From a virus (Duplodnaviria > Caudoviricetes), in the IMG/VR virus record IMGVR_UViG_3300021399_000100: a DNA stretch of 64,000 nucleotides; one strand, written 5' to 3'. This document shows, piece by piece, positions 1,947 to 11,992 of the stretch. A program made the position numbers and the translations under genes. The stretch's first letter is position 1; each line of letters starts with the position of its first letter. The notes under the pieces were generated by a model, which saw nothing but the letters and a program-made list of their open reading frames with translations, was not told where the DNA came from and ran no database searches.

Positions 1947-2297
1947 ATGAAAAAACGCATATATATCAGCCTTCCTATGGGAGGATATGAGGATACAGTC
2001 ATGGATCGATTTGAAAAGGCTTCAAGAGAAGTCTTCCACAAGTTGGGTGATGTTGAAATTATCGCTCCATACGATATCGATATGTTCGATAAAAGCGAAA
2101 TATGCAACACACCTTCAGAAAATCATGACTGGGCGTGGTATATGGGCCGTGATCTTGAAATCATTTTGAGATGTGATGCTATATTTATGTGTAGGGGATA
2201 CCTCAACAGTCAGGGTTGTCGTGTAGAGTTGGCTGTCGCCAGAGAGATGTCTCTTGAAATATTCTTTGCAGATGATGCACAGAACGATATAATATAA
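1947..2297 (+). CDS. DUF4406-like protein (nucleoside 2-deoxyribosyltransferase-like fold)
   Basis: IYISLPMGG N-terminus, W.WYM..DL..L..CDAIFM..GY..S.GCRVE motif typical of DUF4406. Confidence 0.75.
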   Translation: MKKRIYISLPMGGYEDTVMDRFEKASREVFHKLGDVEIIAPYDIDMFDKSEICNTPSENHDWAWYMGRDLEIILRCDAIFMCRGYLNSQGCRVELAVAREMSLEIFFADDAQNDII

Positions 2298-2369
2298 TTT
2301 TACTATGCGGCAGAGATATAAATTCATATAGAGTGATTATATATAGAGATTAATTAATAAATACTGAGA

Positions 2370-2903
2370 ATGGAAAAGATTTCAATTTCACGAGGTATAG
2401 CCATCCGTGCGCTGGAAATCCTTGCGCAAACAGTCTCTGCTGGTCATAATACTCCAGCAGATTCTAGCTGGTACACTATTTTATCTGTCCGTTTGGCTAG
2501 TGTATGCCGAATGAGACGCGACCTCAAAAATATAGATGCACTAGCTACTATCAGTGCTGATGTAAAGGTAGATATGCTCAGCAACCCTATCGGCGCCCTG
2601 ATCTATCCGTCAAGCATATTGACTAACTTTAATTTTAAAGAGTTGACACCGTCTGATGCGAAGATCATTTCAACGATGATTCGAAAAAAGCCAGTAGATA
2701 TCGCCGGCAAACATTACGAAGCCACTACAGATCCTGTTCCTATCTATGATTTAATGACTACGCTTCATATGAAGAGGTTTGTTAAGGATTTGCGTGAGGC
2801 TGCGCAGAAAGAAGAAGATTCTATTATAGAATTGCATAACGATTCTATAAGTGAGTTTATAGGACGGTTGCTTTATGAAGCAAATAAACAAAACAGCAAG
2901 TAA
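2370..2903 (+). CDS. hypothetical protein
   Basis: 177 aa ORF preceded by GTGATTATAT motif at 2333. Confidence 0.7.
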   Translation: MEKISISRGIAIRALEILAQTVSAGHNTPADSSWYTILSVRLASVCRMRRDLKNIDALATISADVKVDMLSNPIGALIYPSSILTNFNFKELTPSDAKIISTMIRKKPVDIAGKHYEATTDPVPIYDLMTTLHMKRFVKDLREAAQKEEDSIIELHNDSISEFIGRLLYEANKQNSK

Positions 2904-2923
2904 CATATAATAATTATAATCAA

Positions 2924-3451
2924 ATGGAGCAAAACGCAACGAATAATTCACAGCCAAATAAGGCAGTGAAAATCAAGGAGTTAATCGACAGACTCGTATC
3001 AACATCTGCCGTTATAGATAAAAACATCGCAGACAACGAAGAGGGTACAGTATGGCCATATGCCGATTCACTGGTACAGAGAACTGAGACCATCTGTAAT
3101 GTTGTTCTTGGGTCAGGCTCTTCTGGGATGAATCTCATTGATAGATTATCTGCCATCTTTACTATTGAACGTGATGTTATCCTTTCAGGATGGACTGACG
3201 AAATCACTGGCAAGTTAGCTGACAGCCTTACTTTTGAAAGTGAGGACTTCAATAAGAATGAAGGTATCTGCGCATACTTCTTCGACCTATGTGCCTTCGT
3301 ATCCCATGCACTTGAGATGAAAGCATATTTAGAAAAAGCGAAGGAAACTGAAAATGTCACTAAGGAAGATGTTGAGATCAAGGAACTCGCACCTAGCCTA
3401 GCACCTGTAATGAAAACATTGGATACTATTAATAATTCGTTCGCACAATGA
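2924..3451 (+). CDS. hypothetical protein
   Basis: 175 aa ORF in operon-like run. Confidence 0.7.
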   Translation: MEQNATNNSQPNKAVKIKELIDRLVSTSAVIDKNIADNEEGTVWPYADSLVQRTETICNVVLGSGSSGMNLIDRLSAIFTIERDVILSGWTDEITGKLADSLTFESEDFNKNEGICAYFFDLCAFVSHALEMKAYLEKAKETENVTKEDVEIKELAPSLAPVMKTLDTINNSFAQ

Positions 3452-3870
3452 GAGACATAGAATGTTTATACATATCGCCTGAAAAGTCTCGTGTTGGGGT
3501 TATGCACAGACGTTTCAGCGTCAAGGAGCTAGCAGATATGCTCGTCGCTAATTCGAAGATTAGCGATTCATACATGACGTATATCCATATGCTGCATTTC
3601 AAAGATGCACATGAATTTATATCACATGCACAATTCAGAGCAAATAAGGTCACTACTCCTAAGGTGTTTGAATTGGCTGTCAACGAAATCATTAATGTTC
3701 CTGCAGAAGTATTGATGTCTCCTTTGCAACTGATGACGTCTGTGGCGTACTATCATCAGAGAGAAGACCCATACGCTATGAGTGCAGGACCTGTTATTAA
3801 GCCATTCGATGTAGATGAAGATGTTGAACAGATAGGATGGACTGTTCAAGCATGCTCGTCTGATATTTAA
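3448..3870 (+). CDS. hypothetical protein
   Basis: 140 aa ORF, ATGA overlap with previous gene. Confidence 0.7.
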   Translation: MRDIECLYISPEKSRVGVMHRRFSVKELADMLVANSKISDSYMTYIHMLHFKDAHEFISHAQFRANKVTTPKVFELAVNEIINVPAEVLMSPLQLMTSVAYYHQREDPYAMSAGPVIKPFDVDEDVEQIGWTVQACSSDI

Positions 3871-3880
3871 TTGATTGATT

Positions 3881-5248
3881 ATGAAACAAATAGTACGTGA
3901 AAAATATGTGTCCAACCCTTCTCGTAATGGGAGGGGGCTGGATGTCTTCATTGATTTTCCCCATCACGTTCTTCATATGAAGAACGAAGAAATGCCAGGC
4001 CAGTATTTCTTGATGTATTTTTCTGATATAGAAAAGAAAGCTTTCCGAGAGGCTTGCCAGTCAGATAATATTATCACTATGTATGATAATTCTTATTTCG
4101 AATATAAGATCGAAGGTACGCTGCCTAGCATGACTAAGTATGCAGATGATATACGTAACTATAAGCCTGATATTATCATGGCAGACGTTAATGCCGCTGA
4201 ATACAAAAAATATAAAGACACATTGATCAGATCTGCATTGTATACTCTCTGTATACAGGAGCAGGATACTCTTTTTATGGCTATTCCTCATGGTGATTCG
4301 CTAGAGGAAATGTGTGATGTGATTAGTTCTATGAATAATGATGAGTGTATTGATATTATAGGCATTCCATATATATTCAATGGATTTACCCGTATAGATA
4401 TCATAGCGCACTGCATAGCTACAGGGCGGTGGTGTTGGAACAAGCCTGTTCATTTGCTGGGATTGGCTGACGCTAATGAAATCCAATCACATAAAGACTT
4501 GATCCGTATCTGTCAGAATATAATCTCGATAGATACATCATACCCTGTGTTGCTCGGTTGTAATGGAGAAACATTAAGATCTGATCCTTTTGATAATGAT
4601 GTGTTTTTCAATAGCAAGCCATCTTTCAACATTGTTAACTGTCCTACAGAAAAGACTGATGAATCCATTATCAGAGAGAATATTGGGTTATTCAAAGAAG
4701 TAATGCAGAAAGCAACAAGTGGCTTTGCTACTATAGCAATAGTAGGAGCTGCTGGTACTGGTAAGACGACTATTGCATTGAAAATCAATGAACTACTTGG
4801 TGAAAGGTCTGTCTATCTTAAATACCCTCCTCTTCATGTAGCATGTGATTATAGAGATCCCGCAATGGCAGACCTCGCAACTGCACTATACACTGGATGC
4901 AATATCATGGCTGCTAATGTGCCGTATGAAAAGACTGTACTATTAGACCGATGCGTTATAGACAATATAGTATATGCTAAGTCTAACAAGAACTATATGC
5001 AGGTGCTAGTCTTCATTGACATATATAAAAAGTTCTGCCTGCATAATATGATTTCTTCAGTAGCATGGACTTTACCATTAGAAGGTGCTATCGAAGAAGA
5101 TGGAAAGCGTGTAACTGATAAGAATGTCCAGAGTCAGATAAATGACTATTTCGAAGAGGTGATATTAGATCTTGCCCCTACGGCAGTTATTTTGAACGGA
5201 GACCTTTCGGTTGATGATCGCATAGAATATCTTTTGCGTCACATTTGA
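3881..5248 (+). CDS. Fusion: tRNA-guanine transglycosylase/DpdA-like TIM-barrel domain + C-terminal P-loop (deoxy)nucleotide kinase-like domain
   Basis: N-terminal YDNSYFE, PDIIMADV, MAIPHG, PVHLLG, SIDTSYPV motifs (TGT-like phage family); C-terminal IAIVGAAGTGKTT, LLDRCVIDNIVY and EEDGKR (AAA_28/dNMP kinase-like); ATG at 3881. Confidence 0.7.
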   Translation: MKQIVREKYVSNPSRNGRGLDVFIDFPHHVLHMKNEEMPGQYFLMYFSDIEKKAFREACQSDNIITMYDNSYFEYKIEGTLPSMTKYADDIRNYKPDIIMADVNAAEYKKYKDTLIRSALYTLCIQEQDTLFMAIPHGDSLEEMCDVISSMNNDECIDIIGIPYIFNGFTRIDIIAHCIATGRWCWNKPVHLLGLADANEIQSHKDLIRICQNIISIDTSYPVLLGCNGETLRSDPFDNDVFFNSKPSFNIVNCPTEKTDESIIRENIGLFKEVMQKATSGFATIAIVGAAGTGKTTIALKINELLGERSVYLKYPPLHVACDYRDPAMADLATALYTGCNIMAANVPYEKTVLLDRCVIDNIVYAKSNKNYMQVLVFIDIYKKFCLHNMISSVAWTLPLEGAIEEDGKRVTDKNVQSQINDYFEEVILDLAPTAVILNGDLSVDDRIEYLLRHI

Positions 5249-5269
5249 TGTAATTTCCATATGTTTTTG

Positions 5270-5305
5270 ACATGCACGCCCCGCTAAAAGGACGTGCATG
5301 TTTTT
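5270..5305 (+). terminator. Rho-independent terminator
   Basis: acatgcacg-loop-cgtgcatgt followed by a T run. Confidence 0.7.
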
Positions 5306-5393
5306 GTTTATGCGTAATTTTTTACACATAAGCGATGATTATTCAATAAAAATTATTATTTTTACGTATAGAAAGAAACAAAAGAACGAAAAT

Positions 5394-5663
5394 ATGAATA
5401 ACAAGAGATATATTATAAGGAAGGCGGATAGCCAACATATGTATACCTATTATACAGGTGGAGCCGGACAGCACTCCTGTCAAGCATTTGATGAGAATAT
5501 CAATGCTGCAAAGATATTTAAAAATGTAGCAGGTGCTAAAGTAGCCTGCGGCGACATATATTGCACTCATCATTTCCATGAATTGGAGATTATTGAGGTA
5601 GCTCTATTTGTAACATCTACAGAACCCATCAAATATGAACATCCCAGCGTTAATCACAAGTAA
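5394..5663 (+). CDS. hypothetical early protein
   Basis: ATG at 5394 after TATTTTTAC promoter-like motif (5357) and A-rich leader; the longer track start lies in the terminator. Confidence 0.65.
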   Translation: MNNKRYIIRKADSQHMYTYYTGGAGQHSCQAFDENINAAKIFKNVAGAKVACGDIYCTHHFHELEIIEVALFVTSTEPIKYEHPSVNHK

Positions 5664-5672
5664 AATAAATAA

Positions 5673-6332
5673 ATGACCATGAAAACGAACAACAAAATCG
5701 CAATAATAACAGTATGTTTTGCTATTTATATCGCAACTATATTTTTCTTAAAGTTATTCACGGCATCAACCAGTGAGACATCTAACGGCACACTAGTACT
5801 TGATACATGCAGCATAGAAGAACCTTATGTAGAGACACGTTCCTCTCATAAATTAGATAAAGCTTCTGCTATACAGCTCATCAAGGCTTTCGAGGGATTC
5901 AGCGATTCAGTATATAAGTGTCCAAGCGGAGTACCTACTGTCGGGTGGGGAACCACTAAAACATGTCTGGCAGAGTTGCATCGCCAAAAGTACGTAGACA
6001 CTACTTTCTATGTATGGGGGCATCATTTAGAGAAGGCAGACGCTGATGTACTTTTATCAAAGACAATAGATATGATTTATAAAATGTCCCTCAAAAATGT
6101 TCCCGACTTGAAGTACTTGTCGCCTAAAGCGCAAGCTGCTTTTATATCATGGGCATATCAATGCGGTATAGGAAGCGTGAAGGCTAAAACGGGAATCATT
6201 GGAGTATTCCCTGATATCATAGATCATATAGATGATAAGATGCTCTATGACATTTTGGTAGAAAGAGCATATTATAGTAAATACAAGGCGAGAAGGCTCA
6301 AAGAAGCCGCTTTGATAATAGGCATTAAATAG
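5673..6332 (+). CDS. GH24 lysozyme/endolysin with N-terminal membrane anchor (SAR-like)
   Basis: Catalytic triad E74-x8-C83-x5-T89 (IKAFEGFSDSVYKCPSGVPTVGWG), C-terminal RR.KEA motif, hydrophobic residues 9-29. Confidence 0.85.
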   Translation: MTMKTNNKIAIITVCFAIYIATIFFLKLFTASTSETSNGTLVLDTCSIEEPYVETRSSHKLDKASAIQLIKAFEGFSDSVYKCPSGVPTVGWGTTKTCLAELHRQKYVDTTFYVWGHHLEKADADVLLSKTIDMIYKMSLKNVPDLKYLSPKAQAAFISWAYQCGIGSVKAKTGIIGVFPDIIDHIDDKMLYDILVERAYYSKYKARRLKEAALIIGIK

Positions 6333-6355
6333 TGAATATAACGATTGATATATAA

Positions 6356-6781
6356 ATGTATATTTGTGTAGATTTTGACGGTACGTGTGTAAGACATGCG
6401 TACCCGCATATAGGAAAAGAGATAGGCGCGGTCCCTGTTTTGAAGTATTTGACCAAAAAGCATAAGATTATTCTGTATACAATGAGAGACGGCTATACAC
6501 TAATGGCGGCTGCTCGTTGGTTCAAATTGCATGACATCGAATTATATGGCATCAATGATAATCCTGGCGCGCATTTTACAAAAAGCCCAAAGGTTCATGC
6601 CAATCTGTATATAGATGACAGAGCACTTGGTATACCATTAGTACCAGATGTTGATAGAGATTATGTTGACTGGCATGGCTGTGTTGAATTGCTTCATAAG
6701 ATGCATCTTGTAGAAGACAACGATGTCAGTGAGTTACACACGCAGATAGATCAGTGGTTGCATGGTGCTGGGGTTGATTAG
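6356..6781 (+). CDS. HAD-superfamily phosphatase
   Basis: VDFDGT motif I, LYTMR motif II, SPKV..NLYIDDRA motifs III/IV. Confidence 0.85.
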   Translation: MYICVDFDGTCVRHAYPHIGKEIGAVPVLKYLTKKHKIILYTMRDGYTLMAAARWFKLHDIELYGINDNPGAHFTKSPKVHANLYIDDRALGIPLVPDVDRDYVDWHGCVELLHKMHLVEDNDVSELHTQIDQWLHGAGVD

Positions 6782-6843
6782 TCCGTTCCACGAATGTAAA
6801 TGACGCAGTAAATAAATATATACATATAAGTAATATAACATTT

Positions 6844-7752
6844 ATGTTGTTATACAGTGAATATAAAGAAGCGGTCAATGAATCGTTCGATGTGCATAAC
6901 ATGAATATCAACAGCAGAAAGCTGACAGTTGGCCAGATGACATATAAGTTCAAGCAATTAGGCTATAAGTTCTATGGCTATGTCAAATTATCACAAAGAC
7001 ACTACAACTCATTTGACGATATAGGCCTTCGCACAGCTATACCTGAAGATATTAGAAAGCTTGCATATAAGTTCGCAAGCAGTACTACTCCTAACGTTAA
7101 AGACACATATCTGCCATGTAGCCCTGATTTGGATGGTATTAATATCGATGTATGGGGTGGCGATGATGATATTTCAACAGAAGATTTCAACAAGCTTATC
7201 CATTCTGGGGAGAATGAAAGTATAGAGAAAGCTACTAATAAGACAGGCGATACTACGTTCTATGTCTTCTTTAACAACCAGAAAAAGTATTTCTATTATA
7301 TAGCCATCAGCGGCATTAGAGAATATGACGCGTTCTTGGAGTTATATGTTAAAGTGAAGGTTTCTGGTGAAGATATGGTCCGTTCAGAGCTTGAAGAAAG
7401 AGCTAAGCTTATACATGCTGATTGGGAAGCTTCTCGCAAAGAAAAAGAAGCCAAGCAAGCTGCACAGAGAAAAGAAGCAGAAGGGAAAGACGAACAAGAA
7501 AAAGAAATTGTCGCCAGACGAGAAGCCCTCAAAGAATACGTTGATAAAAATAAGGATAAATTCAAGGAGATCAAAAGTTACACCGACCTTCCTGATGATT
7601 TCGTAGAATACTCGCACTACGATGAACTTATATCAATAGGCCGATATGATGATACTGAGAAGTTGCGATACGTGTGCAACCAAGACTATACACAGTTGTA
7701 TAAGTATAAGATAACTAACTACGGTAAATCTGGTACATATTGGGGCGATTAA
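6844..7752 (+). CDS. hypothetical late protein, possible internal head protein
   Basis: 302 aa; GTAAATA at 6808; N-terminus MLLYSEYKEAVNES resembles a capsid-targeting/prohead-protease leader. Confidence 0.65.
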   Translation: MLLYSEYKEAVNESFDVHNMNINSRKLTVGQMTYKFKQLGYKFYGYVKLSQRHYNSFDDIGLRTAIPEDIRKLAYKFASSTTPNVKDTYLPCSPDLDGINIDVWGGDDDISTEDFNKLIHSGENESIEKATNKTGDTTFYVFFNNQKKYFYYIAISGIREYDAFLELYVKVKVSGEDMVRSELEERAKLIHADWEASRKEKEAKQAAQRKEAEGKDEQEKEIVARREALKEYVDKNKDKFKEIKSYTDLPDDFVEYSHYDELISIGRYDDTEKLRYVCNQDYTQLYKYKITNYGKSGTYWGD

Positions 7753-7771
7753 ACAATATATATGTATTATT

Positions 7772-7815
7772 ATAACGGGAGATATATGATATTCATGTGT
7801 CTCCCGTTGTTATTA
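7772..7815 (+). terminator. Rho-independent terminator
   Basis: ataacgggagatatatga/tcatgtgtctcccgttgt long stem with T-rich tail. Confidence 0.7.
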
Positions 7816-7881
7816 TTTTAATCGAAACAGTGTTTATTTCGCGATAACAACTACATTTTTGTAAATTTTTGTGAAAGATCT

Positions 7882-7913
7882 TTTGGTATTGTGAAAATTT
7901 TATGTATCTTTAC
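7882..7913 (+). promoter_or_regulatory. Bacteroidota-type early promoter (TTTG-N19-TATCTTTAC)
   Basis: tttg 7882-7885 and tatctttac 7905-7913; same architecture recurs at 28523-28554(-), 33375-33407, 37101-37133, 37348-37380, 39774-39806, 63169-63201(-). Confidence 0.7.
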
Positions 7914-7938
7914 AATATAAATAAAGCAAGAACGTTAA

Positions 7939-8009
7939 GCAGCTAGGGAGGTAGTTGCGCCTATGATTCCGAATAGGCTTGTTGAACACGCTCATAAGAT
8001 TCGTGAGTG
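7939..8009 (+). ncRNA. Candidate structured RNA/leader with three adjacent hairpins
   Basis: gcagcta/tagttgc (loop gggagg), gcctat/ataggc, cgctca/tgagtg; GC-richer than flanks, directly downstream of the early promoter. Confidence 0.35.
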
Positions 8010-8050
8010 ATTATATACATATAGATTAAGTTAACTAAAAAACAAATATT

Positions 8051-8575
8051 ATGATTGACATTACTGAATTAGAGTTTAAGGTAGTACACAAAAGTAAAAA
8101 TGGTGCAACTATCCAATGTGCGGACAGAGCCAGATATACGATATCATGGCCAGTCTTCGAGAAATGTTTCACTAAGCCATCAAAAGATAATATGGTAAAA
8201 GTGAGCGACCTCGTAGTATCATTTAATAATGAGTTATTCTTATCATTACTTTGTGTATCAAAAGGCATTAATACTAAGAATCATCTAGTAGTAACTCAAC
8301 ACATGGATGTGATTGGTAATATTCTGGAGATATCTGACGTTACAGAACTTGTGAATTTCTGCTCCCAAGCAGCGCAGGCTATATTCAACCCTCATCCCAA
8401 GAAAGAGACTCCTGCTGAATATAGACAGCGAAAAGAACGCGAAAGAGAGGAATATATGCAGCGAAAAGAACGCGAAAAGATGAATCGTCCTGCTGAACAT
8501 TGCACATTTGGAATGTCAGGCAAGAACATGTCTGTGCTTCAGGGATTAAAAGAGAAGATTGCTTCAGAAGTATGA
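8051..8575 (+). CDS. hypothetical protein
   Basis: 174 aa ORF with charged C-terminal repeat (QRKERE x2); GTGATTATAT at 8007. Confidence 0.7.
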   Translation: MIDITELEFKVVHKSKNGATIQCADRARYTISWPVFEKCFTKPSKDNMVKVSDLVVSFNNELFLSLLCVSKGINTKNHLVVTQHMDVIGNILEISDVTELVNFCSQAAQAIFNPHPKKETPAEYRQRKEREREEYMQRKEREKMNRPAEHCTFGMSGKNMSVLQGLKEKIASEV

Positions 8576-9294
8576 CACAAGTAAAGATAAAAGTAAAAGA
8601 AGACTATAGGTGCTTCAAGAAAGATGACGAATATGTATTCGATCTACTAGACAACGAACCTAATATAATCGTAGGCAGTAATGGAGCAGGCAAAAGTACC
8701 TTACTGCGCGTACTGCGCCATACTAAAGATACACTTCATAAAAAATGGCTAAATATGCACGATGGCGTAACTCCGACACAGTTCGATAGTGTGGATGCGA
8801 GTAAGTTCGAAGTAGATGGCTTTGACGCATTTGATGAGGTGTTCTATTTAGATATGCAAATAGACGACCCTTCTTCCTTTGCATGTTGTACAACTGCATC
8901 TAGTTTTATATCAATGGGAGGATATACAGCTTCTAGAATAAGCAGAGGTCAAGGAACTATGACTATGCTGGGCAAGGTTGTTGCAGCAATTGAAGAATAC
9001 TATGCAAAGAACCAGAAAGGCAAGGCTTTAGTTGTGCTAGATGAAATAGATGAAGGTTTCGATCTCGGGATATTAGCCGATTTCGTAACAAAGATCAAAA
9101 ATGTCTTCCATAAATATAACCCTGGCACTACAATAATAATATGTACGCACAATCCTATGGTATATATCAATTACGAAGTTCATGCAGTGGACTACAACAA
9201 AGTAACTATGATCCCAGGTGATCTTTATTTCGAAATACATACTGGGTGGAGTATGACTTTGGAGAAGTGTAACAGAATTCAGCAAGATACATAG
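8572..9294 (+). CDS. Stand-alone ABC-type ATPase
   Basis: Walker A GSNGAGKST, signature-like SRGQG, Walker B VVLDEID, H-loop CTHNP; ATG at 8572 (ATGA overlap). Confidence 0.8.
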   Translation: MTQVKIKVKEDYRCFKKDDEYVFDLLDNEPNIIVGSNGAGKSTLLRVLRHTKDTLHKKWLNMHDGVTPTQFDSVDASKFEVDGFDAFDEVFYLDMQIDDPSSFACCTTASSFISMGGYTASRISRGQGTMTMLGKVVAAIEEYYAKNQKGKALVVLDEIDEGFDLGILADFVTKIKNVFHKYNPGTTIIICTHNPMVYINYEVHAVDYNKVTMIPGDLYFEIHTGWSMTLEKCNRIQQDT

Positions 9295-9350
9295 GCATAC
9301 TAATGTTATAAAAGTGATTATATATTTGAAATACATATAAATAATTATTT

Positions 9351-10082
9351 ATGAAAGCAGTTATTTCTTTGAGTGGCGGATTGGATTCCACATGTTTGCT
9401 AATGCATCTATTAGCAAACGACTATGATGAAATTAGGGCTTATTCTTTTAATTACGGTCAGAAGCATGAGATCGAATTAAAGAAGGTTCAGAATAATATC
9501 AAGTTCTTGCAGGAGAAAGGTTTCAATGTTTCTCATCAAATCATCGATGTCCGAGATTGCTTCTCCGATTCTGCATCTTCTCTTCATAAAGGTGGTGAGG
9601 CTATTCCTGAAGGCCATTATGCATCAGAAAACATGAAGTCTACTGTAGTTGAGAACCGCAATGTAATATTCTCGTCTATCATTTATGGTAAGGCTCTAGG
9701 CTGGGCTAATAAGACACAAGATGATGTTAAGATCACATTAGGCGTCCACAGTGGGGATCATTTTATCTACCCAGACTGCCGGCCAGAGTCAGTCAATATG
9801 GCACGAGAGCTATTTAGAATCTCTAACGTAGGTAGCGAGAGAGTAGATTATATCTCTCCGTTCGTTAATATCGATAAGGGACAGGTATTGAAATCTGGCA
9901 TCGATGCTATGAAGACTTTGGGCTTTAACACAACAGAGATCGAAGGAGTTCTTGCAAATACGCACACATGCTACAACCCTAATGACAAAGGGGAGAGCTG
10001 TGGAAAGTGCGGAAGCTGTACGGAGCGACTAGAAGCATTTGCTGCTAATGGAATCAAAGATCCAATCGCATACCAGAAGTAA
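9351..10082 (+). CDS. queC: 7-cyano-7-deazaguanine (preQ0) synthase
   Basis: SLSGGLDST PP-loop, YGQKH, VENRN, YPDCRPE, zinc motif TCY...CGKCGSC. Confidence 0.95.
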   Translation: MKAVISLSGGLDSTCLLMHLLANDYDEIRAYSFNYGQKHEIELKKVQNNIKFLQEKGFNVSHQIIDVRDCFSDSASSLHKGGEAIPEGHYASENMKSTVVENRNVIFSSIIYGKALGWANKTQDDVKITLGVHSGDHFIYPDCRPESVNMARELFRISNVGSERVDYISPFVNIDKGQVLKSGIDAMKTLGFNTTEIEGVLANTHTCYNPNDKGESCGKCGSCTERLEAFAANGIKDPIAYQK

Positions 10083-10110
10083 ATCATTCTAAATCAATGC
10101 ATTATCTGTT

Positions 10111-10139
10111 GAGGCACATACTTTATGTGCCTCTTTTTT
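10111..10139 (+). terminator. Rho-independent terminator after queC
   Basis: gaggcacata/tatgtgcctc followed by T run. Confidence 0.75.
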
Positions 10140-10150
10140 GTAAATACAAT

Positions 10151-11992
10151 ATGAGTAAGAAAACAACAATAGATGTAGATGCTATATTTGAAAGGTATCA
10201 CTTTTTGGGTGATCCTTCAAATAAAAATGATGTATACACCTTCATGATGAAGGAGACCTCTAATGGGATGCTGAAGAAAGAGAACGTTTTCAAAGCATGC
10301 TTCCCTATATTATATAGTGACATTAGAAAAACGGATTGGGACGCATCATGGTCGTTCTCACAGATACTGTCGCACTATTTTGATCCTCATATAATCACAA
10401 CGTGCAGGACGTGCGGAGGAGCAGTTCCATATAGAAGCTTCAAGAAAGGATATGCACCGTATTGCAGCACTAAATGTGCAAATTCTAATGATGACAAGAA
10501 ATTGAAGACAGAGAACACCAATATCAGCAGATATGGTGTGAAGAATGTCTTTATGTCAGAGACAGTGAAAGAACAGAGTAAGAAGACATGCAATGAGAAA
10601 TATGGCCATGACTATGCCAGCCAGTCTAAAGACGTAAGAGACAAGATAACAGATACATGCACAGAAAGATACGGATGCTCTACACCATTTAGAATGGATG
10701 ATTTTCAAGAGAAGAGTAGAAAGACATGTATAACAAAATATGGGTGTGACTATCCTTCTCAAGCACAAGTATCTAAAGAAAAGGCTAGAAAGACATGCAA
10801 TGAGAAATATGGTGCATCTAATCCGTCTTATAGTCCAGATGTTATAGAAAAGCGTCGCGTTACTAATTTCAGCAAGTATAATGACAAATGGATTACTCAG
10901 ACTGAAGATTTCATAAGTGCGAACCATAATAAGTTTTTAGAAAGACACCCAGATATTATAAACGAAACTAAGGAAGCATATATAGTCAGATGCAATGATG
11001 AATGTTGTGACTTGTGTCATGACAAATGCTTTGAAATAGATAAAGAGACCTATAAGCAGAGATCTTCATCTAATATTATATTATGCCCTATCAAGAACCC
11101 TGTAGAAGGGACATCTTCATATGTGGAGAATGAGATAGCAGATTACATCCGAACTATATACGACGGAGAAATCATAACGTCAGATAGGTCCCTTATAGCA
11201 CCGAAAGAGATAGACATCTACATTCCAGAGAAAAAGCTTGCTATTGAATTTAACGGAGTGTTTTGGCATTCTGACTTCAATCCTAAGATGCATAAGAATT
11301 ATCATAGAGACAAATCTTTAGAATGCATGGCTAAAGGAGTCCATCTGCTGCATATATGGGAAGATGACTGGAATCTCAAGAAAAACATAATAAAAGACTA
11401 TATCAGATCCAAATTAGGCCTGTGTAGCAAGAGAGTATACGCTAGAAAGTGTCGTATTTGTGAAATAAACGCACATATAGCGCGAGATTTCATGGAAGCT
11501 AATCATATTCAGGGATATGCAAATTCAACGTATAAAATCGCGTTATATTACAATAATGAAATAGTATCTGTTATGCTGATAGGCAAGCTGAGAAATTCTA
11601 TGGGATCTGTTCCGAAAGAAGGATCATATGAAATATATAGACTAGCATCTTCTGCAGATACTGAAGTGTGCGGAGGATTTTCAAAGATGCTGGCATACTT
11701 CGAAAAGAAATATACCCCTAAAGAGATTATAACATATGGAGATCTATGCTATACATGGGGTAATGTATATAAGAAATGTGGATTCATTGAAGAACGCTTG
11801 TCCTCTCCTTGTTATTCATGGGTAGTAGGCAGACGCAGATATCATAGATCTAATTTTATGAAGAGCAAGCTGAAAGAATGTAGAGAAGACGACAGTCTTA
11901 CGGAAGATAACGTTATGCGTTCTAGAGGAGCCTATAAAATATGGGATGCTGGCAAGATTAGATTCGTCAAGTATTATAATATAAGTAAATAA
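10151..11992 (+). CDS. Hef/Vsr-like homing endonuclease-type protein with Zn finger, T-x3-KYG repeats and C-terminal Mom-like GNAT domain
   Basis: CRTC...YCSTKC; repeated TCxEKYG; EIDIYIPEKKLAIEFNGVFWH nuclease motif; NHIQG...EIYRLAS...GGFSKML...IITYGD...VYKKCGF; ATG 10151 after GTAAATA 10140. Confidence 0.7.
   Translation: MSKKTTIDVDAIFERYHFLGDPSNKNDVYTFMMKETSNGMLKKENVFKACFPILYSDIRKTDWDASWSFSQILSHYFDPHIITTCRTCGGAVPYRSFKKGYAPYCSTKCANSNDDKKLKTENTNISRYGVKNVFMSETVKEQSKKTCNEKYGHDYASQSKDVRDKITDTCTERYGCSTPFRMDDFQEKSRKTCITKYGCDYPSQAQVSKEKARKTCNEKYGASNPSYSPDVIEKRRVTNFSKYNDKWITQTEDFISANHNKFLERHPDIINETKEAYIVRCNDECCDLCHDKCFEIDKETYKQRSSSNIILCPIKNPVEGTSSYVENEIADYIRTIYDGEIITSDRSLIAPKEIDIYIPEKKLAIEFNGVFWHSDFNPKMHKNYHRDKSLECMAKGVHLLHIWEDDWNLKKNIIKDYIRSKLGLCSKRVYARKCRICEINAHIARDFMEANHIQGYANSTYKIALYYNNEIVSVMLIGKLRNSMGSVPKEGSYEIYRLASSADTEVCGGFSKMLAYFEKKYTPKEIITYGDLCYTWGNVYKKCGFIEERLSSPCYSWVVGRRRYHRSNFMKSKLKECREDDSLTEDNVMRSRGAYKIWDAGKIRFVKYYNISK

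Follow-up and report, generated by a model that had tools for sequence, protein, structure and literature searches.

How some phages replace every guanine (G) of their DNA by a 7-deazaguanine base is the question raised by the locus analyzed here, which lies in a 64,000-nucleotide stretch (the window) of the IMG/VR virus record IMGVR_UViG_3300021399_000100 (Duplodnaviria; Caudoviricetes). An earlier reading made from the letters alone (the sequence-only reading) had noticed that one polypeptide of the window joins a barrel resembling tRNA-guanine transglycosylase (TGT) to a P-loop kinase domain, and that queC lies about 4 kb downstream. Both observations were borne out: the fused open reading frame (ORF) is intact with all quoted motifs in place, and an intact queC starts 4.1 kb downstream of it (Table 1). 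Our analysis established the identity of both domains, which were refined to a DpdA3-type barrel and a phrog_2107/AAA_28-type kinase on the basis of profile matches, together with their fusion in one gene and the conserved pairing of their standalone counterparts. What is new here is that the fusion mirrors a near-universal gene pair, consisting of a standalone DpdA3 gene and a kinase gene, which is near-obligate across phage lineages. The fusion and the pairing name a missing partner of DpdA3, offer a possible reason for its failure in Escherichia coli, and point, with slightly better than even confidence, to a pre-replicative route in which the modified guanine would be made on a free nucleotide or nucleoside.

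A frameshift or assembly artefact as the origin of the fusion could be ruled out, because nine metagenomic protein clusters (47-99% identity) have the fused architecture over its full length, because a distant second lineage of fusions, represented by P0011 (430 aa, with a barrel 28% identical to that of the window), has it as well, and because further contigs span the ORF, which runs from an ATG at position 3881 to a stop codon at 5246-5248. One of these, a 14-kb DNA contig from another study, covers positions 3404-5699 and contains substitutions and no indel within the ORF. The other, which stems from an RNA library, covers positions 3837-5268. The phage was found in ruminant gut samples of several studies in public sequencing runs. 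A megablast of the region against phage records gave no match and a profile search of IMG/VR with the fusion alignment returned 0 relatives. We regard the list of parts, comprising the domains, the fusion, queC and the context elements, as almost certainly correct as given. A few kb upstream of its fusion, the contig carrying P0011 (L007) has a Thg1-like gene at 2697-3470 and, at 4885-5397, an ORF with weak similarity to guanylate kinase.

The barrel (residues 1-275) was examined in a structural model and in an alignment of 26 sequences. It was modeled at a predicted local distance difference test (pLDDT) score of 91 and its top 50 Foldseek matches in the PDB were all TGTs, in agreement with the TGT-like N-terminal domain recognized in the sequence-only reading. 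Among solved structures the barrel profile had a sole significant match, the bacterial DpdA 7ui4 (E 1.3e-4), and in this alignment H137 falls on His181 of DpdA and D218 on the nucleophile Asp256, the roles of which have been described (PMC10164549). Residues D69, R171, H191, L193, G194 and D218 are invariant in the 26 barrel sequences, and D102 is nearly so; the similarity of the surrounding motif makes D69 a candidate equivalent of DpdA Asp95. Profile and fold comparisons assign the barrel to the DpdA3 subfamily, because the hidden Markov model (HMM) of the family matches CGPG_00065 of Cellulophaga phage phiST, the founding DpdA3 (E 9.6e-37), because a CC_R7 protein of 246 aa, homologous to CPT_0056 of CP220 (both are Campylobacter phages), aligns over its full length (hhalign probability 99.6, E 1e-24, 234 columns), and because a 259-aa phiST protein is among the top three viral fold matches with template-modeling (TM) scores of 0.70/0.74. 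The E values of these three matches range from 5e-12 to 1.6e-11 and are separated by a clear gap from those of other DpdA and TGT families. The two best viral fold matches, BFVD A0A7S5UVF1 (422 aa) and A0A6J5M071 (344 aa), exceed the length of standalone DpdA3 proteins and may themselves be fusions.

The comparison with DpdA1 to DpdA4 and TGT profiles and structures that had been suggested with the sequence-only reading thus leads to DpdA3 and not to PF01702, PF20314 or PF23859. A function of the barrel as a tRNA TGT was rejected, judging by the absence of any match to PF01702 (tRNA-guanine transglycosylase) up to E 0.1 and by the absent zinc motif, no conserved Cys or His following the nucleophile in the 26-sequence alignment. 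The match to DUF6610 (PF20314), which is the DpdA4 family (PMC10516641), reached 20.4 bits (E 4e-4) where 27 are required, and seven of 18 relatives likewise gave weak matches, suggesting a related family in which the barrel, scoring below the gathering threshold, is not a member. Likewise, the bacterial DpdA model PF23859 left the window protein unmatched and detected one of the 18 relatives at E 0.007; the match to 7ui4 shows distant homology and not membership of that family. The barrel is minimal in size, with 246-280 aa across the family, and acidic, with an isoelectric point of 4.9 and a computed net charge of -14; the kinase domain is acidic as well.

The C-terminal 180 residues (276-455) are, by profiles and by the modeled fold, a P-loop kinase similar to thymidylate kinase and to the ribosylnicotinamide kinase domain of NadR (NadR-RNK), with the fold of a small-molecule kinase. 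The best Pfam family was AAA_28 (PF13521; E 4.7e-6), for which the score of 27.3 bits lies marginally above the cut-off of 27, and the same family scored higher for P0011 (4.8e-11) and for the kinase of CC_R7 (4.8e-10). In addition, phrog_2107, named 'thymidylate kinase', was matched at E 4e-11, whereas Thymidylate_kin (PF02223) stayed below its cut-off (E 0.09) with the DR motif and the LID present, and the Pfam model of deoxynucleoside kinases (dNK) was below threshold. In the full-length model the second domain superposes on thymidylate kinases (TM 0.59-0.65, normalized by target), deoxyadenosine kinase, NadR-RNK and nicotinamide riboside kinase. Searching the PDB with a profile of 28 kinase sequences retrieved NadR-RNK (2.6e-9), thymidylate kinase (2e-8), dNK (1.4e-7) and deoxyguanosine kinase (3e-6), and a DDGxR LID is common to the kinase family and NadR-RNK. 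The residues invariant in this profile, namely the P-loop G, GK, the R of DR, an Asp and two further Arg, one in the LID and one C-terminal, are those expected of an active phosphotransferase. Judged from sequence, the phosphate acceptor may be a nucleoside or a nucleoside monophosphate (NMP), and since thymidylate kinase is no nearer to the profile than the nucleoside kinases NadR-RNK and dNK are, a route via the deoxynucleoside is as possible as one via (d)GMP.

The pairing of DpdA3 with a kinase was surveyed in 80 IMG/VR loci taken with standalone DpdA3 relatives, out of at least 515 such loci. In 79 of these 80 mutually related loci a gene of the kinase family lies 0-3 kb downstream of DpdA3 on the same strand, most commonly in the order DpdA3-kinase-QueF (37 loci) or in this order with one or two formyltransferase genes between DpdA3 and the kinase. 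Similar arrangements were found in Campylobacter phages and other contigs. CC_R7 has the order queC, DpdA3, a 180-aa AAA_28 kinase and DNA polymerase, and CP220 has a protein with HD and AAA_33 domains, DpdA3 (CPT_0056) and a 180-aa phrog_2107 kinase (CPT_0057). The metagenomic contig L008 carries FolE, phosphoribosyltransferase, PRA-PH (MazG-like), DpdA3, an AAA_28 kinase and, farther on, QueC, and contig L009 carries DpdA3, formyltransferase and an AAA_28 kinase. In Bacillus and Weizmannia phages a different kinase-like gene (phrog_761) immediately precedes DpdA3 and DNA polymerase A; the DpdA3-family gene, placed between these two within a folE/queD/queE/queC cluster, leads us to predict a modified G in these phages. 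The loci concerned are L001 and L005 (Bacillus BSTP phages and Weizmannia phage Youna2), and in GenBank records of the BSTP phages the DpdA3-family gene is labeled NadR, integrase, polynucleotide kinase or hypothetical.

Moreover, DpdA3 of phiST is abutted by CGPG_00066 (L090:46381-46860, minus strand), which was published as a protein of unknown function having no homologues in other 7-deazaguanine phages. With its P-loop and a match to AAA_18 (9e-7) it looks like a small kinase, and it belongs to a kinase-like family different from that of the fusion, the HMM of which missed it at normal thresholds and gave E 0.008 once filters were switched off. The presence of non-orthologous kinases in the same slot fits a generic need for phosphotransfer better than a specific DNA-handling partner. 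Whole-genome searches of 9g, CAjan and HVTV-1, three phages with DpdA1, DpdA2 and DpdA4, respectively, found no member of the kinase family, which was present twice in CP220, where a second phrog_2107-type copy is found at record positions 5419-5931.

Other genes inserted in or adjoining the DpdA3 module are predicted from their domains to act on free nucleotides. In ten loci a MazZ-type dATP/dGTP diphosphohydrolase domain (PF18909, 6e-23) is encoded directly upstream of the kinase, between it and DpdA3, and MazZ is known to convert dGTP to dGMP in the dZ (2-aminoadenine) pathway (PMC8342488). Ten IMG/VR loci have a gene similar to GMP reductase and IMP dehydrogenase (IMPDH; PF00478, 2e-55) between DpdA3 and the kinase. 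PRA-PH and phosphoribosyltransferase genes stand beside DpdA3 in L008, MazG is two genes away from DpdA3 in phiST, and in CP220 the gene directly upstream of DpdA3, CPT_0055 (L006:4859-5890, plus strand), encodes an HD phosphohydrolase fused to an AAA_33 domain (polynucleotide-kinase/zeta-like). Searches with HMMs and single-sequence queries found no MazZ-type, GMP-reductase-like, formyltransferase, QueF, phosphoribosyltransferase, PRA-PH, HD or FolE gene in the window, in its relatives L002 and L003, or in L007. The MazZ-type genes (for example L029:8295-8663) are usually preceded by one for a conserved 179-aa protein outside any Pfam family (for example L019:5540-6076), and the GMP-reductase/IMPDH-like protein exemplified by L046:7381-8337 (319 aa) has no visible CBS domain and is flanked by two formyltransferase genes.

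In the mechanism that we propose, preQ0 would be supplied via the phage QueC and exchanged for guanine on a free 2'-deoxyguanosine nucleotide by the barrel, with D218 as the predicted Asp nucleophile, the likeliest substrate being dGMP and a possible one the deoxynucleoside. The fused kinase would then phosphorylate the product, possibly a poor substrate for the guanylate kinase of the host, nucleoside-diphosphate kinase would yield the triphosphate, and the phage polymerase would incorporate the modified nucleotide. The substrate, the order of the steps and the modified DNA itself are what we infer; as queC is present and neither QueF nor formyltransferase was seen in the window, a preQ0-type base is predicted for this phage. 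The free-nucleotide model is favored because the partner has a small-molecule kinase fold with P-loop, DR motif and LID Arg, because the fusion exists in two diverged lineages and the DpdA3-kinase pairing is conserved, and because the place of the kinase is taken by non-orthologous enzymes from one lineage to another. It is further favored because nucleotide-pool enzymes are encoded inside or beside the DpdA3 module, because the kinase family is missing from the DpdA1, DpdA2 and DpdA4 control phages and doubled in CP220, and because the barrel is minimal and acidic and lacks the zinc motif. Published facts fit as well, since G is fully replaced in DpdA3 phages, including a reported full dADG substitution in CP220 DNA, since the ADG nucleoside was found in infected cells' cytoplasm, and since DpdA3 was inactive when expressed in E. 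coli without such partners (PMC10516641). The argument of the sequence-only reading, which deduced a free nucleotide as product from the kinase partner, was thus strengthened by the near-obligate pairing and by the pool enzymes of the module, while its choice of (d)GMP for the catalytic step is deduced and shares its standing with a deoxynucleoside route. On this evidence, which leans modestly toward the idea, DpdA3 proteins would be the first TGT-superfamily enzymes to swap the base of deoxyguanosine in free form, as nucleotide or nucleoside, and would form, with the kinase, a general pre-replicative pathway for full replacement of G.

Within the probability given to the free-nucleotide model as a whole, a smaller share, making it improbable by itself, goes to a version in which free deoxyguanosine would be the substrate of the barrel, acting in the manner of a 2'-deoxyribosyltransferase, and the fused domain would be a deoxynucleoside kinase forming the monophosphate, to be completed by further kinases. 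The best solved match of the kinase profile, NadR ribosylnicotinamide kinase with its shared DDGxR LID, the good scores of deoxynucleoside and deoxyguanosine kinases, AAA_28 as best Pfam family, and the HD phosphohydrolase and second kinase-like domain directly upstream of DpdA3 in CP220 all agree with it. However, the MazZ-type and MazG enzymes of the modules would give dGMP and not deoxyguanosine, the DR motif and the PHROG assignments indicate thymidylate-kinase-like enzymes, and a second dedicated kinase would be required, because the fusion holds a single kinase domain. Alternatively, the barrel might act after replication as a DNA transglycosylase that swaps guanine for preQ0 in new phage DNA, the P-loop domain being an ATP-dependent helper similar to DpdB or a co-located general deoxynucleoside monophosphate (dNMP) kinase. 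We consider this explanation unlikely but credible, because the characterized relatives, to our knowledge all characterized members of the TGT/DpdA superfamily, have polynucleotides as substrates, and because the bacterial enzyme DpdA depends on an ATPase. The strict requirement of bacterial DpdA for its ATPase partner DpdB in order to act on DNA (PMC10164549) means that a P-loop partner alone is no proof of a metabolic role, and an absent ATPase would likewise explain the failure of lone DpdA3 in E. coli. The closest sequence match among solved structures, 7ui4, is itself a DNA-guanine transglycosylase, and the authors who defined DpdA3 favor post-replicative insertion, which they propose for all these marks (PMC10516641). 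Still, DpdB is a ParB-like DNA clamp, whereas the partner found here is a 180-aa domain that has the NMP/nucleoside-kinase fold, including LID and DR motif, and its slot is held by different kinase families in different lineages. Both domains are acidic, the barrel has neither the zinc subdomain nor the nucleic-acid-binding insertions of TGT and DpdA, genes of MazZ, MazG, HD, GMP-reductase-like and phosphoribosyltransferase type occur in or beside the module, and full replacement of G would be harder to attain after replication.

A role outside DNA, in which phage or host tRNA would receive a queuosine precursor or a 7-deazaguanine base would be salvaged, would suit a superfamily that mainly modifies tRNA. 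This is very improbable, given that the barrel groups with the DpdA3 proteins of phages having fully modified DNA (PMC10516641), fails PF01702, lacks the TGT zinc motif, and belongs to a module that adjoins DNA polymerase in several lineages. Besides the arguments for action on DNA, further points weigh against the free-nucleotide model. We infer the chemistry of DpdA3 and its kinase from sequence and gene context, and neither a dGTP-clearing enzyme nor QueF or formyltransferase was found in the window with HMM and phmmer searches. Furthermore, L002 and L003 have no queC within 10 kb of the fusion, the 80 surveyed IMG/VR loci are akin to one another (48-56% identity to the query), so that 79 of 80 does not stand for 79 independent events, and the control set consists of three phages only. 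The statement of the sequence-only reading, given as established, that DpdA3-type proteins have been proposed to work at the nucleotide level proved inaccurate, since the DpdA3 authors argue for post-replicative action and the idea of a modified dGTP predates DpdA3, being recorded as an earlier proposal for Campylobacter phages by Hutinet et al. (2019; PMC6884629). The modified-dGTP route proposed in 2019 was put aside upon the discovery of DpdA3 in 2023, and a paper of 2025 still gives 7-deazaguanine as the example of modification at the nucleic-acid level. In the literature searched, the coverage of which was limited, neither a link between DpdA3 and a kinase nor a proposal of DpdA acting at the nucleotide level was found.

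The surroundings of the fusion in the window are summarized in Table 1. The queC gene matches the Pfam model QueC (PF06508) over positions 1-209 of 210 and is intact; its product has the PP-loop (SGGLDS) and, at the C-terminus, the cluster of Cys residues. It is directly followed by a gene for a homing/HNH endonuclease, and the whole 5.3-12 kb stretch is unlike the syntenic region of the relatives, which have no queC there. Because of this adjoining endonuclease and the differing stretch, queC may have arrived with mobile DNA. The gene order SbcC, three small ORFs, fusion, lysozyme is kept in L002 and L003, in which ORFs of similar size occupy the places of the three small ones; the latter had no match in Pfam, PHROG or Atlas. 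The motif GTGATTATA, presumably a promoter, precedes both the first ORF of the co-directional string that ends in the fusion and queC, and is present in ten copies in the window against 2.0 expected, a number reached in 0 of 100 shuffles. One further copy in sense orientation lies in the kinase part of the fusion ORF and could be due to chance or be an internal promoter for downstream genes. An ORF similar to DUF4406 and nucleoside 2-deoxyribosyltransferase, located between an SbcC-like gene and the gene string of the fusion, may encode another nucleotide-pool enzyme; no ORF of the same size is present at this place in L002 or L003. Between the fusion and queC are an ORF assigned to phrog_1238 and, just upstream of queC, one for an AAA_21/SMC-like ATPase.

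Table 1. Positions in the window of the fusion gene, its domains and motifs, and neighboring features.
Feature	Position	Strand	Basis or remark
Fusion gene, DpdA3-family transglycosylase + kinase	3881..5248	+	Single intact ORF, 455 aa
DpdA3-family TGT-fold barrel, aa 1-275 (VHLLGL at aa 190-195)	3881..4705	+	Model pLDDT 91, profile homology
Candidate catalytic residue D69 (DNSYFE, aa 69-74)	4085-4102	+	
Candidate catalytic residues D102, H137		+	
Candidate catalytic residue D218 (SIDTSYPV, aa 216-223)	4526-4549	+	
Kinase domain, aa 276-455	4706..5245	+	AAA_28, phrog_2107, fold
Kinase P-loop GAAGTGKTT (aa 289-297)	4745-4771	+	
Kinase motif DRCVIDNIVY (aa 356-365)	4946-4975	+	
Kinase LID EEDGKR	5093-5110	+	
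GTGATTATA copy in kinase part of fusion ORF	4845-4853	+	
DUF4406 / nucleoside 2-deoxyribosyltransferase-like ORF	1947-2297	+	Pfam 9e-13, phrog_355 2e-22
GTGATTATA promoter-like motif	2333..2341	+	29 nt before first ORF of co-directional string ending in fusion
Three small ORFs just upstream of fusion	2370-2903, 2924-3451, 3448-3870	+	Syntenic in relatives
ORF, 141 aa	6356-6781	+	phrog_1238 'phosphoheptose isomerase' 2e-25, no Pfam match
AAA_21/SMC-like ATPase ORF	8500-9294	+	
GTGATTATA motif	9314..9322	+	29 nt before queC
queC, 7-cyano-7-deazaguanine synthase (CDG to preQ0)	9351..10082	+	Pfam QueC E 2.2e-44, phrog_1550 E 3e-48
Homing/HNH endonuclease	10097-11992	+	phrog_3339 E 4e-127

If the free-nucleotide model is true, it would add a new type of reaction to the TGT superfamily, provide the guanine counterpart of the hydroxymethylcytosine (hmC) and dZ pathways, and represent a possible enzymatic source of 7-deaza-dGTP analogues. 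The same pathway would then serve the Campylobacter and Cellulophaga phages, the Flavobacterium-type phages and those of the ruminant gut, and the current opinion that these marks are all post-replicative would have to be given up.

Similar to the DpdA3 proteins of phiST (CGPG_00065) and CP220 (CPT_0056) (Cui et al., 2023; PMC10516641), the window protein has a minimal TGT barrel with DNSxFE, HLLG and SIDTS motifs and co-occurs with preQ0-synthesis genes, but it carries a kinase domain covalently joined to the barrel; in the paper that defined DpdA3 the word 'kinase' occurs 0 times and action on DNA is assumed (PMC10516641). With the bacterial DpdA/DpdB system (7ui4; PMC10164549) it shares the aligned catalytic His and Asp nucleophile and the reliance of a transglycosylase on a nucleotide-binding partner, whereas DpdA, with 416 aa, contains DNA-binding insertions and DpdB is a ParB-like ATPase without kinase fold; bacterial DpdA modifies less than 0.1% of G (PMC10516641). 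The kinase domain resembles thymidylate kinase, dNK and NadR-RNK in fold, P-loop, DR-type motif and LID Arg, but unlike thymidylate kinase and dNK it scores below the Thymidylate_kin and dNK Pfam thresholds and is fused to or paired with a transglycosylase. In the hmC route of phage T4, a dCTPase, dCMP hydroxymethylase and the dNMP kinase gp1 act together. The dZ route relies on MazZ, PurZ and DatZ (PMC8342488). The logic of these routes is that one enzyme clears the dNTP, another modifies the dNMP and a kinase is dedicated to the product, all clustered near the polymerase. Some DpdA3 modules correspond to this by their MazZ-type gene, but in the window no clearing enzyme was found, and a TGT-fold enzyme would carry out the modification, as a base exchange. 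We know of no TGT-fold enzyme that performs such an exchange on a free nucleotide. Nucleoside 2'-deoxyribosyltransferases swap bases on free deoxynucleosides via a covalent deoxyribosyl-enzyme intermediate, and although their fold and nucleophile are unrelated and no kinase is attached to them, they provide a functional precedent for the proposed base-exchange step.

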